From: a bacterium
Lineage (GTDB): Bacteria > Zhuqueibacterota > Zhuqueibacteria > Residuimicrobiales > Residuimicrobiaceae
DNA: 64,000 nucleotides
Reading direction: 5' to 3'
NCBI GenBank assembly: GCA_035353815.1
Contig: DAOQAG010000001.1
Location: 17,159 to 81,158, forward strand
Of this stretch, positions 17,778 through 21,911 are shown in pieces. The notes below the pieces were generated by a model that saw nothing but the letters and a program-made list of their open reading frames with translations, searched no databases and was not told the origin of the DNA. The position numbers and the translations under genes were made by a program. Positions within the stretch are counted from its first letter, which is position 1; every line of letters starts with the position of its first letter.

Positions 17778-19706
17778 TTATTCTGCACTGCCCTCCTCCT
17801 TGGTCGCGTGCTCCTTTTCCTTGACCTCTTCATACCACGCCGGGAAGCGCTCCTCCGCCTCTTCTTCGGTTATCTTGCCGGTAAAGCCGGTAAGATTGAT
17901 CGGATAATCGGCGGGATGGAAAATCGCGAAAAACATATGATAGAGGAGGATGGCCAGAAACGCCAGCCAGGCTTCATAGAGGTGGATGACCTCGGCTACT
18001 TTGACGATCCATGCCGGCAGCAGAAAGGTTGCCGTGGTCGGGAACCAGAGAACAAAACCGGTCAGGGCCATGACCGCGGTACCCCATACCAGGGCCCAGT
18101 ACTCCGCCTTTTCGACATAGCCGTACCGTGCAAAGTTGGCGCGCTCCCGGCTGATCCCGAGATGATATTTCATATTGGCGATGAACTGGCGGACATCATC
18201 GATACCCGGCAACAGGGCTTTGAGTTCTCCGCGGGCGCTGCGCGCAAAGGCAAGATAGCCGAGGTGATAGATACCGGCTGCCAGCATCACCACCGCTGAA
18301 ATGCGGTGGATCAGGCCGCGCAACCCCTCGCTCAGGCCCAGGGTGGTCAGCAGTCGTGCCCATGCGGTGTTGGAGTATTTGAGGGCGAAGCCAGTGATCA
18401 CCAGCAGGGTAAAGGAGATAAAGATCGCCAGGTGCTGGATGATCCATGAACGGTCGAAGCGCTGGATCGTCTTTTGCAATTTTTGCGCCCGCCATTTGGC
18501 GCGGGCATATTTAAGCCAGATGATGAGATTGTGGAGCACCATGCCGCCGATCACCACGACGATCAGCCAGAGATACGCTTTGCCGATATAGCGGGCGAGA
18601 CGGTCGCCGAACGAATCGGGTTTGGCATGGATATAGCTCTGGGAAAATTCCTGGGTGGCATTGGGATGGCAGGAGCCGCAGGTCTTGCTGAGGTTGGCGA
18701 TGTGGATCGTCGAAGCCGGGTTGGACTGGGGCAGAATGGCATGGACGCCGTGGCAACTGGTGCAGTTGGCCGCCACCCGCGAACCCCGGTTGGTGGCCAG
18801 ACCGTGATAGCTGGCACGATAGGAGGTGACGGGATCGAGCGTAATGCCATATTTTTCATTCAACTGGAGCAGTCCATGGCAGGGGGCGCAGATCTTTTCC
18901 GAAACATTGGCCGCAGCGGTGGGTGAGGCCGCATCATCGGGGGAGAGGATTTCATGCTCGCCGTGGCAAAAGGTACACGTGGGCACCTCGGCGACACCCC
19001 GCGCCAGATCCATCCCGTGGATGCTGCCTTCGTATTCAGCCTCGACATCGCCATGACAGGTGCCGCAGGTTTTGGAGATATTGGCGCGAAACACCGGCGA
19101 CTGCGGATCGCTCGCGGAGCGCAAATGGTGGGGTTCGTGGCAGCTGCTGCAGGTCGCCGCCCCGTCATTGCCCGCCATCAAGGCTTTGCCATGCACCCCC
19201 CGGTTGAATTTCTCCACCGGCGCGGCAACGCGAATATCGTGCTTCTCGGCCAACCCTTTGTCGCGGTGGCAGGCGCCGCAGGTGGCCGGGAGGCGGGCCG
19301 GATGGGTGCGGGAGGCGGTCTCCAGGGAGCTGAGGATGTCATGTTTGCCGTGGCAATCGCTGCAGACCGGAGCGTCTGCATCGCCCGCCGCCAGCGCCTG
19401 GCTGTGGAGACCCTTGGCGAACTCGGCCGCGGCTTCGCTATGGCAGCGCGCACACTCCACCCGCTTGAGCGGCGAATCGTGGGGGTCGCCGACCGCATCG
19501 CGATGGCAATCCTTGCAATCCAGCCGGCCGTGCACCGATCGGGCAAAAACAGCTTCATCAACAAAGAGCGTATCTTCACCGCCCGAGGCATTGGGCCGCG
19601 TCATGGTGGAATCACCATGACAGACCGCACACGGGCTTTGCGCCAATGCACCCGCTGCGGCCAGAAGAATCGAGAAGAAGATAATGCTGAGGCCAGGTCT
19701 AGGCAT
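17778..19706 (-). CDS. Fusion cytochrome: a periplasmic 11-haem c-type domain joined to a C-terminal 4-helix dihaem b-type cytochrome (FdnI/HydC-like; the architecture of Geobacter CbcL)
   Basis: Signal peptide; 11 CxxCH motifs (CAVCH, CKDCH, CARCH, CSDCH, CGACH, CSSCH, CGTCH, CTFCH, CAPCH, CTSCH, CGSCH), mostly in a paired spacing. These are followed by 4 transmembrane helices with conserved His ('IQHLAIF', 'GLIHRISAVVMLAAGIYHLGYL', 'AEVIHLYEAWLAFLAILLYHMFFAIFHP'). Confidence 0.8.
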   Translation of the reverse strand: MPRPGLSIIFFSILLAAAGALAQSPCAVCHGDSTMTRPNASGGEDTLFVDEAVFARSVHGRLDCKDCHRDAVGDPHDSPLKRVECARCHSEAAAEFAKGLHSQALAAGDADAPVCSDCHGKHDILSSLETASRTHPARLPATCGACHRDKGLAEKHDIRVAAPVEKFNRGVHGKALMAGNDGAATCSSCHEPHHLRSASDPQSPVFRANISKTCGTCHGDVEAEYEGSIHGMDLARGVAEVPTCTFCHGEHEILSPDDAASPTAAANVSEKICAPCHGLLQLNEKYGITLDPVTSYRASYHGLATNRGSRVAANCTSCHGVHAILPQSNPASTIHIANLSKTCGSCHPNATQEFSQSYIHAKPDSFGDRLARYIGKAYLWLIVVVIGGMVLHNLIIWLKYARAKWRAQKLQKTIQRFDRSWIIQHLAIFISFTLLVITGFALKYSNTAWARLLTTLGLSEGLRGLIHRISAVVMLAAGIYHLGYLAFARSARGELKALLPGIDDVRQFIANMKYHLGISRERANFARYGYVEKAEYWALVWGTAVMALTGFVLWFPTTATFLLPAWIVKVAEVIHLYEAWLAFLAILLYHMFFAIFHPADYPINLTGFTGKITEEEAEERFPAWYEEVKEKEHATKEEGSAE

Positions 19707-19828
19707 GGTTTCGTCTCTCAGTTCCTGGTGGGACTACAAAGAAAAATCTCGCGCCGCCTGGGGATGGCAGCGCGAGAACGAGAGCTGGTGCACTACTTTC
19801 GGGGCGAAGCTATACCCGCCGATCCGGA

Positions 19829-20383
19829 TCAGCTTTTGGGCGCGGGATGCGCGATGAGCTTGAAGGCTTCTTCGGCCTTGAATGGCTTGTAGGTCGGGCT
19901 TTCCTGATTATGGCATTTGACGCAGTTCTTCTTGTCGCCGGGATTATAGGCGACTGCAGCGGCATCCTGGGTCTTGGCGGCCAGCGCTTTCATGACTTTC
20001 ATCGACTGGTAGAGCGAACCAGCGCCATGACAGGTTTCGCAGGTTACGCCCTCTTCCATCTTGTAGGTCGCGGCCTTGGCGGTGGCGGGGGCATCATACG
20101 CCGTCACATGGCACTTTAAACACTTGGCCGATTTCTGGGGATCTTCGACACCGGCCTTTTTGCCAACCGCCTTGGCTTCTTCCGTCGCCAGTGTGGCGAA
20201 GGCGCTGGCATGCTTGCTCTTGGCCCAAATCGCATAGGGCTCGCCTTTGGCTTTCGCGGAATGGCACATCTTGCACTTGGCGGCGCCAATGTACTGGGCC
20301 TTGTCGGTTTGAGCGAACAGGACCATCGAAAAGACCAGCGCCAGCACCAGAACCAGGGTGGTCACGAACACACGCTTGCTCAT
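19829..20383 (-). CDS. Periplasmic tetrahaem c-type cytochrome
   Basis: Signal/anchor 'RVFVTTLVLVLALVFSMVLFA' and 4 CxxCH motifs (CKMCH, CLKCH, CETCH, CVKCH). The start at 20383 has a GGAGGT RBS; an alternative ATG lies at 20395. Confidence 0.8.
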   Translation of the reverse strand: MSKRVFVTTLVLVLALVFSMVLFAQTDKAQYIGAAKCKMCHSAKAKGEPYAIWAKSKHASAFATLATEEAKAVGKKAGVEDPQKSAKCLKCHVTAYDAPATAKAATYKMEEGVTCETCHGAGSLYQSMKVMKALAAKTQDAAAVAYNPGDKKNCVKCHNQESPTYKPFKAEEAFKLIAHPAPKS

Positions 20384-20525
20384 TTTTACCTCCATCAGAG
20401 TTGACTGCTTGCGTCATATCGCTAATAAATAACCAATAAAAGATGAATATTGCAACAGCAAAATGCATCACTTTGGCCTGCTATAGCGATTTGCATCCCT
20501 AATAACGCAAAATCTGATGAAAAGT

Positions 20526-21911
20526 TCATTCTTCCCCGGTATTTTTTTCGCTTTCTTCCGGGTTTTCCCAGCGCTCCATGCGCGAATAGAGCTGCCGGCG
20601 GGTGATCCCCAACAGCCTGGCCGCCTTGCTCTTGTTGCCTTCGGCCCGGGCGATCGCCCGCTCAATAAGATGGCGCTCCATCTCGTCCAGGGTGGGCAGC
20701 TCATCGCCGCCGCGCCGGCAGGCGGTGCCGCCCTCTTCCTGGCCGCGGATATGCGCCGGCAGATCATCGCGGCTGATCGTTTTGCCGCCGGACAGAATCA
20801 GTGCCCGCTCGATGATATTTTCCAGCTCGCGGACATTGCCCGGCCAGCGGTAGGCCATCATACTCTGCAGCGCTGCGGCATCGATACCCGCAGCATCCGC
20901 CTTTTGCAGAGAGAGAAAGTGGCTCACCAGATCGGGGATATCCTCGCTGCGATCCCGCAGCGGCGGCAGATGAATCGGAAAGACATTGACCCGATAGTAG
21001 AGATCCTCGCGAAAGAGGTTGCTGCGCACGGCCTCCTCGAGGTCGCGATTGGTGGCGGTGAGGATGCGCGCCTGCATCTTCAGGGTTTCTGTCCCGCCCA
21101 ACCGTGAAAACTCGCGCTGCTGCAACACCCGCAGCAGCTTGACCTGGGTCGCCGGCGAAAGATCGCCGATCTCATCCAGGAAAATGGTGCCGGCACCGGC
21201 CAGCTCGAAGCGCCCGGGTTTTTGCCGTTCCGCACCCGTGAAGGCCCCCTTTTCGTGCCCGAAGAGCTCACTTTCCAGCAGGGTTTCAGGGAGAGCACTG
21301 CAGTTCACCGCGATGAAGGGCGCCTCGCTGCGGCGGCTGCGTTGATGGATCGCCCGCGCCACCAGCTCCTTGCCGGTGCCGCTCTCGCCGCGGATGATGA
21401 CCGTGGCATCGGTCGGCGCCACCTTCTCGACCAGCTCGTAGACCATTTGCATCGCGCCGCTCTGTCCCACCATGTTCTCGAGTGAAAAGCGCTCCTGGAG
21501 TTGCACCCGGAGATCGCGGTTTTCGGCCCGCAGCTGATGCTTGTCGAGAATATTGCGCACCTTGAGACGCAGTTCTTCGATCTCGAACGGCTTGATAATG
21601 TAATCAAAGGCCCCGCTCTTCATCGCTTCGACGGCCATCCGCGCATCGGCATAGGCAGTCATCAGCAGGACCTCGGTTTCCGGCGCCGCAGCTTTGACCT
21701 TTTTTAGCAGCTCCAGCCCGCTCATGCCGGCCATCTTGATGTCGCTGACGATCACGTCAAAGTGCTCGAGGGAGATGGCCGCCCAGGCCGCTTCGCCACT
21801 CTCTGCGGTCGTCACCGCCAGCTGCGGTGTCGCCAGGGCTTCGCGCAGCACGGCGCACATCCGTTTCTCGTCGTCGACGATCAGCAGTCTGGCTGTTCTG
21901 GTTTCCATCAT
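20526..21911 (-). CDS. Sigma-54-dependent response regulator (NtrC family: receiver, AAA+ sigma-54 interaction domain, Fis-type HTH)
   Basis: Receiver 'LLIVDDE...', Walker A 'GESGTGKELVARAIH', the GAFTGA motif 'EKGAFTGA', and a C-terminal HTH 'AARLLGITRRQLYSRM'. Confidence 0.9.
   Translation of the reverse strand: MMETRTARLLIVDDEKRMCAVLREALATPQLAVTTAESGEAAWAAISLEHFDVIVSDIKMAGMSGLELLKKVKAAAPETEVLLMTAYADARMAVEAMKSGAFDYIIKPFEIEELRLKVRNILDKHQLRAENRDLRVQLQERFSLENMVGQSGAMQMVYELVEKVAPTDATVIIRGESGTGKELVARAIHQRSRRSEAPFIAVNCSALPETLLESELFGHEKGAFTGAERQKPGRFELAGAGTIFLDEIGDLSPATQVKLLRVLQQREFSRLGGTETLKMQARILTATNRDLEEAVRSNLFREDLYYRVNVFPIHLPPLRDRSEDIPDLVSHFLSLQKADAAGIDAAALQSMMAYRWPGNVRELENIIERALILSGGKTISRDDLPAHIRGQEEGGTACRRGGDELPTLDEMERHLIERAIARAEGNKSKAARLLGITRRQLYSRMERWENPEESEKNTGEE

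Follow-up and report, generated by a model that had tools for sequence, protein, structure and literature searches.

Within the window analysed here, a 64-kb stretch of contig DAOQAG010000001.1 from an uncultured bacterium of the Residuimicrobiaceae, two adjacent genes on the minus strand encode multihaem cytochromes: a 642-amino-acid (aa) protein in which an 11-haem c domain is fused to a di-haem b domain (the bc protein; 17778..19706) and, immediately 5' of it, a periplasmic tetrahaem cytochrome of 184 aa (19829..20383). From its sequence the larger protein can be assigned to the CbcL/MtrH/MtoC family of inner-membrane bc-type cytochromes, and the pair is best explained, with fairly good confidence, as a quinol:periplasmic-cytochrome module of the CbcL/MtrH/MtoC type, with the tetrahaem protein as soluble partner. 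An earlier note, made from the DNA alone, had proposed a CbcL-like identity and a role in passing electrons from the quinone pool to periplasmic cytochromes; full-length homology to a Geobacter-type CbcL, together with features specific to CbcL, bears out the identity, and the role is a reasonable reading of architecture and homology. Such a gene would mark this glycan degrader, which bears a type IX secretion system (T9SS), as able to link its quinone pool with periplasmic multihaem carriers, a prerequisite for the respiration of metals, humic substances or electrodes, or for the uptake of extracellular electrons.

The open reading frame (ORF) call and the domain matches give the bc protein the order Sec-type signal peptide, 11-haem c domain, anchor helix, di-haem b domain and cytoplasmic tail. 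The eleven CxxCH motifs first counted from the DNA are present in this ORF, at residues 26, 64, 85, 115, 143, 186, 214, 244, 273, 315 and 343; every Cys of the protein sits in one of them, while about 0.004 such motifs would be expected by chance in 365 aa, by our own estimate. Ligand conservation was judged on an alignment of the bc protein with 119 relatives. In the periplasmic c domain (about residues 23-365; 18612..19640, minus strand), eleven His residues outside the motifs (59, 76, 101, 122, 172, 193, 230, 251, 301, 322 and 360) are kept in 99-100% of these relatives, and no conserved Met was found in the domain in this alignment. Since eleven invariant non-motif His are available for eleven haems, and no Met is conserved, the c haems are probably all bis-His. 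The domain consists of repeated di-haem units, relatives having 11, 13, 15, 17 or 19 motifs, and its residues 26-157 match chain A of PDB entry 28pb ('Cytochrome c', 278 aa) with an E value of 9.6e-6.

The protein has five hydrophobic helices, the anchor helix TM0 and the four of the b domain. TM0 (about residues 366-403; 18498..18611, minus strand) carries the invariant motif IGGMxLHN, whose His, H392, is found in 119 of 119 relatives and also in Geobacter-type CbcL, FdnI having no counterpart; H392 might mark a quinone site, a haem contact, or an extra ligand or cofactor site undescribed for CbcL-type proteins. A PDB sequence search with the TM0 region gave no match. The b domain (about residues 414-600; 17907..18467, minus strand) is a four-helix cytochrome b of the FdnI/HydC type, recognised by Pfam, NCBIfam, profile alignment and structural model: Ni_hydr_CYTB (PF01292) covers residues 416-598 (E 1.2e-13), TIGR01583 (FdnI) covers residues 414-631 (E 3.8e-16), and the best PDB sequence match of the C-terminal third is E. 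coli FdnI (1kqf_C, E 8.6e-9), with HydC-type cytochrome b matched as well. When the family b-domain profile is aligned to E. coli FdnI, H425, H467, H575 and H590 correspond to the ligands H18, H57, H155 and H169, so that the four His which had been placed by eye at FdnI/HydC-like positions are indeed all there, and all four are invariant in the 119 relatives. By analogy, H425/H590 would hold a haem on the cytoplasmic side and H467/H575 one on the periplasmic side. The conserved Y530-x-E532-K533 sits at the quinone-site loop of FdnI, N110-x-G112-Q113-K114. A third b haem, held through H481, was considered and rejected, since this residue is no general ligand: 97 of the relatives have His there, 21 have Gln and one has Tyr, and CbcL has Met.

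The AlphaFold2 model of the 642-aa protein (pLDDT 86.4, pTM 0.75) has FdnI 1kqf_C as its sole significant PDB match in Foldseek, with a target-normalised TM-score of 0.85 and a probability of 1.0. Basic residues cluster in the loops 402-418 and 489-536, which fits the FdnI topology with the N terminus of the b domain in the cytoplasm. A CbcL-type match was absent from both the PDB sequence search and the Foldseek search of entries released up to April 2026. With FdnI (1kqf chain C) the bc protein shares the four-helix bundle, the four equivalent His ligands and a similar cytoplasmic C-terminal tail; where FdnI has the Fe-S subunit and its transmembrane (TM) anchor, however, the window protein has the fused c domain and TM0, and the FdnI quinone-loop residues N110/G112/Q113 are G/V/E, within the Y-x-E-K motif.

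CbcL (GSU0274) of Geobacter sulfurreducens was reportedly described by Zacharoff et al. The CbcL sequence used for comparison was stitched by hand from a frameshifted Geobacter-like contig (L006), reached via a 136-aa fragment (P0121) that was itself matched by the machine-read CbcL alignment in the supplement of PMC9129911, and is adequate for motifs: it carries nine CxxCH motifs, with a sixth helix at its C terminus. On that contig (L006:3635-5700) frameshifts split cbcL into four called ORFs, a pattern that looks like error in long-read assembly and not like genuine loss of the gene. The window bc protein matches the stitched orthologue in tblastn with an E value of 2e-36 over residues 54-640, and the two are 28% identical along their full length in a MAFFT alignment. 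Both carry on one polypeptide a signal peptide, a periplasmic multihaem c domain (probably bis-His in the window protein, as in CbcL), an anchor helix and an FdnI/HydC-type di-haem b domain; common to both are five invariant TM His, a helix-IV His pair spaced 15 residues (14 in FdnI, His155-His169), and the Y-x-E-K loop motif, which FdnI lacks. The window protein differs in having 11 haems against 9, with an extra di-haem repeat at about residues 214-251, and in its pairing with a c554-type tetrahaem gene, whereas CbcL relies on PpcA-type trihaem cytochromes. The periplasmic domain of CbcL has been reported to hold nine bis-His haems with a midpoint of -194 mV and to reduce PpcA (PMC9129911), and the CbcL/MtrH/MtoC family as a whole to span 3-23 haem motifs, most members having six TM helices and some five or four (Zhong & Shi 2018, PMC6295460). 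The gene was found neither as a pseudogene nor truncated in related genomes. ImcH, CbcBA and CymA/NapC/NrfH share the proposed job, the exchange of electrons between the menaquinone pool and periplasmic cytochromes; ImcH, CymA and NrfH, however, are of the NapC/NirT type and have no b haems, and in CbcBA the b and c parts belong to different subunits. Pfam and NCBIfam scans of the window proteins gave no family membership with any of them.

The tetrahaem cytochrome immediately upstream (19829..20383, minus strand) is a c554-family protein with four CxxCH motifs and a Sec signal peptide. Its mechanical ORF, 19829-20395, would give 188 aa; an invariant GGAGG seven bases upstream of the second ATG and the gene calls in relatives place the actual start at 20383, which yields the 184 aa originally noted. 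This ribosome-binding site (20389..20393, minus strand) is invariant in six loci. Pfam Cytochrome_C554 (PF13435) scores 67.5 bits against a gathering threshold of 20.8, phmmer finds Nitrosomonas europaea c554 (1bvb) with an E value of 3.5e-6 and the four CxxCH motifs in register, and the structural model (pLDDT 90.4) has c554 (1bvb/1ft6) as its top PDB match with a Foldseek probability of 1.0. Because only H58, H179 and M131 are invariant as distal ligands among 120 relatives, the conservation pattern suggests bis-His ligation for two haems, His/Met ligation for a third and no conserved sixth ligand for the fourth. This recalls c554 (CycA) of N. europaea: H58 aligns with its His27, M131 stands where c554 has His102, and against the three conserved distal ligands for four haems here c554 has a five-coordinate haem. 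The window protein is smaller than c554, at about 160 aa mature versus 211, with 24-26% identity. An assignment as a nitrifier CycA orthologue was rejected, since NF043010 gives 48.9 bits where its cut-off is 400, and the window is without hao. In nitrifiers cycA stands directly before cycB, a membrane quinone-reactive multihaem gene, and the tetrahaem-bc order resembles that of cycA-cycB; the membrane partner here is nevertheless CbcL-type, and not NapC/NirT-type like cM552 (CycB).

The pairing of the two genes is conserved. In relatives between 85% and 57% identity the tetrahaem gene stands directly 5' of the bc gene, with flanking genes that vary, and at 58% identity in one locus (L013) it is still present, about 3 kb off and on the opposite strand. 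Between the two genes lies a terminator-like hairpin followed by a U-run (19737..19777, minus strand), with a 12-bp stem of nine G-C pairs and a 7-nt loop, which takes up the greater part of the 122-nt spacer, with the bc start codon about 30 nt further on. It is kept in L001 and absent in L010, where the spacer is 11 nt; L011 and L012 have other hairpins in its place. The hairpin is probably a leaky or partial terminator by which the soluble carrier would be made in greater abundance than the membrane protein. A scan of 17300-24500 against Rfam returned two sub-threshold chance matches only.

The quinol-binding site, the direction of flow, the tetrahaem cytochrome as direct partner and the final acceptor are proposed here by analogy. 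The Sec signal would export the 11-haem c domain to the periplasm, and TM0 would bring the chain back to the cytoplasm. The H425/H590 haem and the Y530-x-E-K533 loop would adjoin a menaquinol site at the cytoplasmic face, by analogy with FdnI and with what has been argued for CbcL, and the electrons of menaquinol would cross the membrane from the H425/H590 haem to the H467/H575 haem and on to the chain of c haems, to be passed to the c554-family tetrahaem cytochrome and from there to acceptors encoded outside the window. The protons of quinol would be released on the cytoplasmic side, with the membrane potential assisting quinol oxidation; because they would be released inside, the quinol-oxidising step would build no proton-motive force, which would suit low-potential acceptors. 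Run in reverse, the same device would be an energy-conserving redox loop. For CbcL, the Bond laboratory has argued that with a b domain of the FdnI type the quinol reacts on the cytoplasmic side of the membrane (bioRxiv 10.1101/2022.08.31.506072).

Several observations weigh against the quinol:periplasmic-cytochrome module as proposed. The 64-kb window holds no multihaem ORF beyond the tetrahaem and bc genes, and no outer-membrane conduit, terminal reductase or other redox protein was found in it. At 45-47% identity the bc gene is often alone among housekeeping genes, so that the tetrahaem pairing is specific to the clade. The CbcL comparator was the stitched orthologue and not the reference GSU0274, and the window protein has five TM helices against six, with an FdnI-like cytoplasmic tail in place of the C-terminal sixth helix; since five- and four-helix members are listed for the family (PMC6295460), this makes it a variant and does not exclude it. 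Finally, the family is represented among Fe(III) reducers as well as Fe(II) oxidisers (PMC6295460), and for that reason the direction of flow is not readable from sequence.

This last point bears on a rival reading, in which the pair would run in the opposite direction as a cytochrome c:quinone reductase. Fe(II), reduced humics or a periplasmic oxidoreductase would donate electrons to the tetrahaem cytochrome and menaquinone would be reduced at the cytoplasmic face, giving a redox loop of the Fdn-N type with a gain in proton-motive force, in parallel with the HAO-c554-cM552-quinone route of nitrifiers and with MtoC of Fe(II) oxidisers. The b domain has the fold and ligand geometry of FdnI, which runs in the quinone-reducing direction; the partner is of the c554 family, the gene order mirrors cycA-cycB, and the invariant Met131 of the tetrahaem cytochrome suggests a His/Met haem of higher potential. 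CbcL/MtoC homologues in Fe(II) oxidisers (PMC6295460) point the same way. On the other hand, no hao, hydrogenase, formate dehydrogenase or other periplasmic donor enzyme was found in the window or in close loci, the c domain appears to be all bis-His like that of the low-potential CbcL (PMC9129911), and an organotrophic life on glycans, such as the organism seems to lead, would presumably call for electron sinks and not for inorganic donors. For these three reasons quinol oxidation is favoured over quinone reduction, and the reverse reading is considered unlikely.

A bolder proposal would see in the 11-haem, five-helix clade and its c554-like partner no metal-reducing quinol oxidase of the Geobacter kind but a reversible, energy-conserving cytochrome c:quinone loop, an analogue of cycA-cycB built on the FdnI scaffold, with H392 perhaps a quinone or cofactor site. 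We regard it as improbable; if true, widespread organotrophs among the KSB1-like bacteria of the Fibrobacteres-Chlorobi-Bacteroidetes (FCB) type, the Calditrichota and the Acidobacteriota could harvest electrons from extracellular or periplasmic donors.

As to how the quinol:periplasmic-cytochrome module is controlled, an NtrC-type sigma-54 enhancer-binding response regulator (20526..21911, minus strand; REC, Sigma54_activat with GAFTGA, and HTH_8) and a sensor histidine kinase (21924..23267, minus strand; two TM helices, a periplasmic domain of about 145 aa, HisKA and HATPase_c) lie upstream of the tetrahaem gene. Their domains, and the minus strand common to the kinase, regulator, tetrahaem and bc genes, agree with the first description of the locus; Pfam gave no family for the periplasmic domain of the kinase. 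The earlier note had further supposed sigma-54 control of the cytochromes, that is, regulation by this two-component system through a -24/-12 promoter, and here the evidence makes the claim doubtful. In its favour, the four genes are co-oriented and together in relatives at 85% to 66% identity (L001-3, L010, L011 and L012) and linked though rearranged in L013 (58%), and pairs of NtrC-like regulator and kinase occur near bc clusters in some KSB1 and Ignavibacteriota loci, at 32-46% identity, which does not suffice to establish orthology. Against it stands a strict scan in which GG-N10-GC was forced, with up to three mismatches in the window and five related loci and up to two in 12 more distant loci: no element was found in 20384-20525, which includes the interval 20396-20525 where one had been expected, none in the tetrahaem-bc spacer 19707-19828, none in the equivalent spacers of L001, L010, L011, L012 and L004, and none upstream of the cytochrome genes in the 12 distant loci. 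Allowing up to two mismatches to TGGCAC-N5-TTGCW, the window has 31 matches against a chance expectation of 31.5, none in the relevant spacers. A one-mismatch candidate at 24484-24499 (minus strand) was rejected, lying within the GHL10 coding region and not being kept in L001.

What the spacer does hold is a conserved promoter-like block, TgTTGCAAt-N13-TTGgtTAtTT (TTGCAA-N18-TAtTTa; 20427..20457, minus strand), which is not of the -24/-12 kind. It lies about 45 nt before the tetrahaem start codon in all six aligned loci, including L004, where it is kept in spite of there being no two-component system adjoining the cytochromes, and a search of 1.19 Mb, both strands included, finds it a single time in each locus, upstream of the tetrahaem gene and nowhere else. 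By its form it would be a promoter of the sigma-70 or FCB sigma-A-like type. Since the -24/-12 element is absent and this block is there instead, direct sigma-54 control of the cytochrome genes is unsupported; a functional link with the two-component system is possible, because the kinase-regulator-tetrahaem-bc order is kept to 66% identity and the genes are still linked at 58%. The two-component system may instead serve envelope glycan genes, since a GT9 (heptosyltransferase-family) gene at 23292-24347 (minus strand) is tightly packed with it: the gaps from GT9 to kinase and from kinase to regulator are 24 nt and 12 nt, whereas 142 nt separate the regulator from the tetrahaem gene. In L001 the GT9 gene overlaps the kinase gene by 4 nt (L001:3356-5781), and GT9 adjoins the two-component system in L010, L011 and L012 too.

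The module had also been described as lying inside a glycan-uptake locus of a T9SS-bearing organism. The genes are truly there: the part of the window annotated for domains (7.5-54.6 kb) holds GHL10 with a Por_Secre_tail, GT9, three SusC-like receptors and PorP/PorV, and the order GHL10-GT9-kinase-NtrC-cytochromes is kept in the closest relatives. A functional role of the cytochrome pair within this glycan-uptake/T9SS locus is nevertheless very unlikely, for L012 has other neighbours both upstream and downstream, L004 has MFS, peptidase and thioredoxin-like genes beside the pair, L013 and L014 have an added 19-haem paralogue, and more distant homologues stand in multihaem clusters or among housekeeping genes. 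Because the pair keeps its identity while its flanks change, the nearby glycan-uptake genes are incidental to it.

Least credible of all is a place for the bc protein in a formate dehydrogenase or Ni/Fe hydrogenase, as its gamma (cytochrome b) subunit: FdnI and HydC-type cytochrome b are what the C-terminal third matches best in NCBIfam and the PDB, and several relatives are named 'formate dehydrogenase gamma subunit' by JGI, but the scores fall far under the curated cut-offs (59.7 against 115.85 bits for TIGR01583, and 25.6 against 121.5 bits), no FdnG/FdnH was found in the annotated part of the window or in the annotated related loci, nor hydrogenase genes in neighbourhoods with Pfam tables, the fused 11-haem domain takes the place of the Fe-S subunit, and the FdnI quinone-site residues are replaced. 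'Formate dehydrogenase gamma subunit' should not be used in annotation to name such genes.

The wider interest of the CbcL-type bc protein lies in its family and not in this locus. The protein search returned at least 2748 relatives at E < 1e-5; among the best 120 of them, 81 have 11 motifs and the rest mostly 15, 17 or 19, numbers that fit expansion by di-haem repeats. At least 567 species in GTDB carry a confirmed relative, so that the 11-haem, five-helix version of CbcL is very common outside the Desulfuromonadia, mostly in Acidobacteriota, Gemmatimonadota, Calditrichota, Zixibacteria, KSB1 and Ignavibacteriota. The scan of GTDB species genomes listed 80 loci, a set that does not include the window's own genome and its closest relatives; they come from Acidobacteriota, Gemmatimonadota, Calditrichota (including Caldithrix abyssi), Zixibacteria, KSB1, Latescibacterota, Ignavibacteriota and Planctomycetota. 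The bc gene has 11 motifs in 71 of these 80 loci and lies less than 3 kb from a further ORF with at least three haems in 60 of them. Zhong & Shi (2018, PMC6295460) had already placed homologues of CbcL/MtrH/MtoC in 15 phyla, Bacteroidetes, Ignavibacteriae and Calditrichaeota among them, and the exact window bc protein is in NCBI as HNW58067.1 and HPR87107.1, 'cytochrome b/b6 domain-containing protein [bacterium]'. The view that such a gene is unusual in an FCB-type organism did not hold: given the 15 phyla, the number of relatives and of GTDB species, and the abundance of the family in KSB1, Calditrichota, Zixibacteria, Latescibacterota and Ignavibacteriota, the bc module is an ordinary find there, of a common and already catalogued kind. 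A search for literature on the 11-haem clade in KSB1, Calditrichota or Acidobacteriota returned nothing specific. Worth noting are how large and uniform this unstudied clade is, the fifth membrane His, which is invariant, and the partner of c554 type.

Partners of other kinds accompany the bc gene elsewhere. In Calditrichota a 19-haem ORF of about 930 aa comes after the 11-haem bc gene, and 12- and 9-haem ORFs come before it (among L013-L092, for example L022, L025, L026 and L031); in L008 a cytochrome b domain is part of an ORF of this 19-haem type. The bc gene of many Acidobacteriota has a 6-haem ORF of about 510 aa directly 3' of it (for example L044, L048, L051 and L055). These are conserved, lineage-specific partners, unlike the c554-type one found here.

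Among the neighbouring genes, a cytochrome c nitrite reductase pair, nrfH-nrfA (Cytochrom_NNT and Cytochrom_C552), stands in close relatives directly after an RluD-like pseudouridine synthase gene (L001:14969-17015, L010:13979-15932 and L011:15057-15929). The equivalent place in the window, about 10800-12640, has no multihaem ORF, and the genome therefore seems to be without the enzyme at this locus. Convergent with the bc gene is a plus-strand ORF of 93 aa (17400-17681) with a lipoprotein-like signal (LLFTAC), hydrophobic segments and no Pfam match; it is kept as a 94-aa gene in L001, L010 and L011, and is not found in L012 or L004. The SusC-like TonB-dependent receptors lie at 29747-32788, 35036-38278 and 45344-48652, each followed by an ORF of about 700 aa without a Pfam match (27537-29729, 32852-35005 and 43236-45317, all minus strand) in the position expected for a SusD-like partner. 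The last SusC-like gene is separated by a PIN-PhoH fusion (PIN_4 and PhoH; 48821-50167, minus strand) from a UvrD-type helicase gene, and the helicase itself (50433-53534, plus strand) has an N-terminal extension of about 500 aa.

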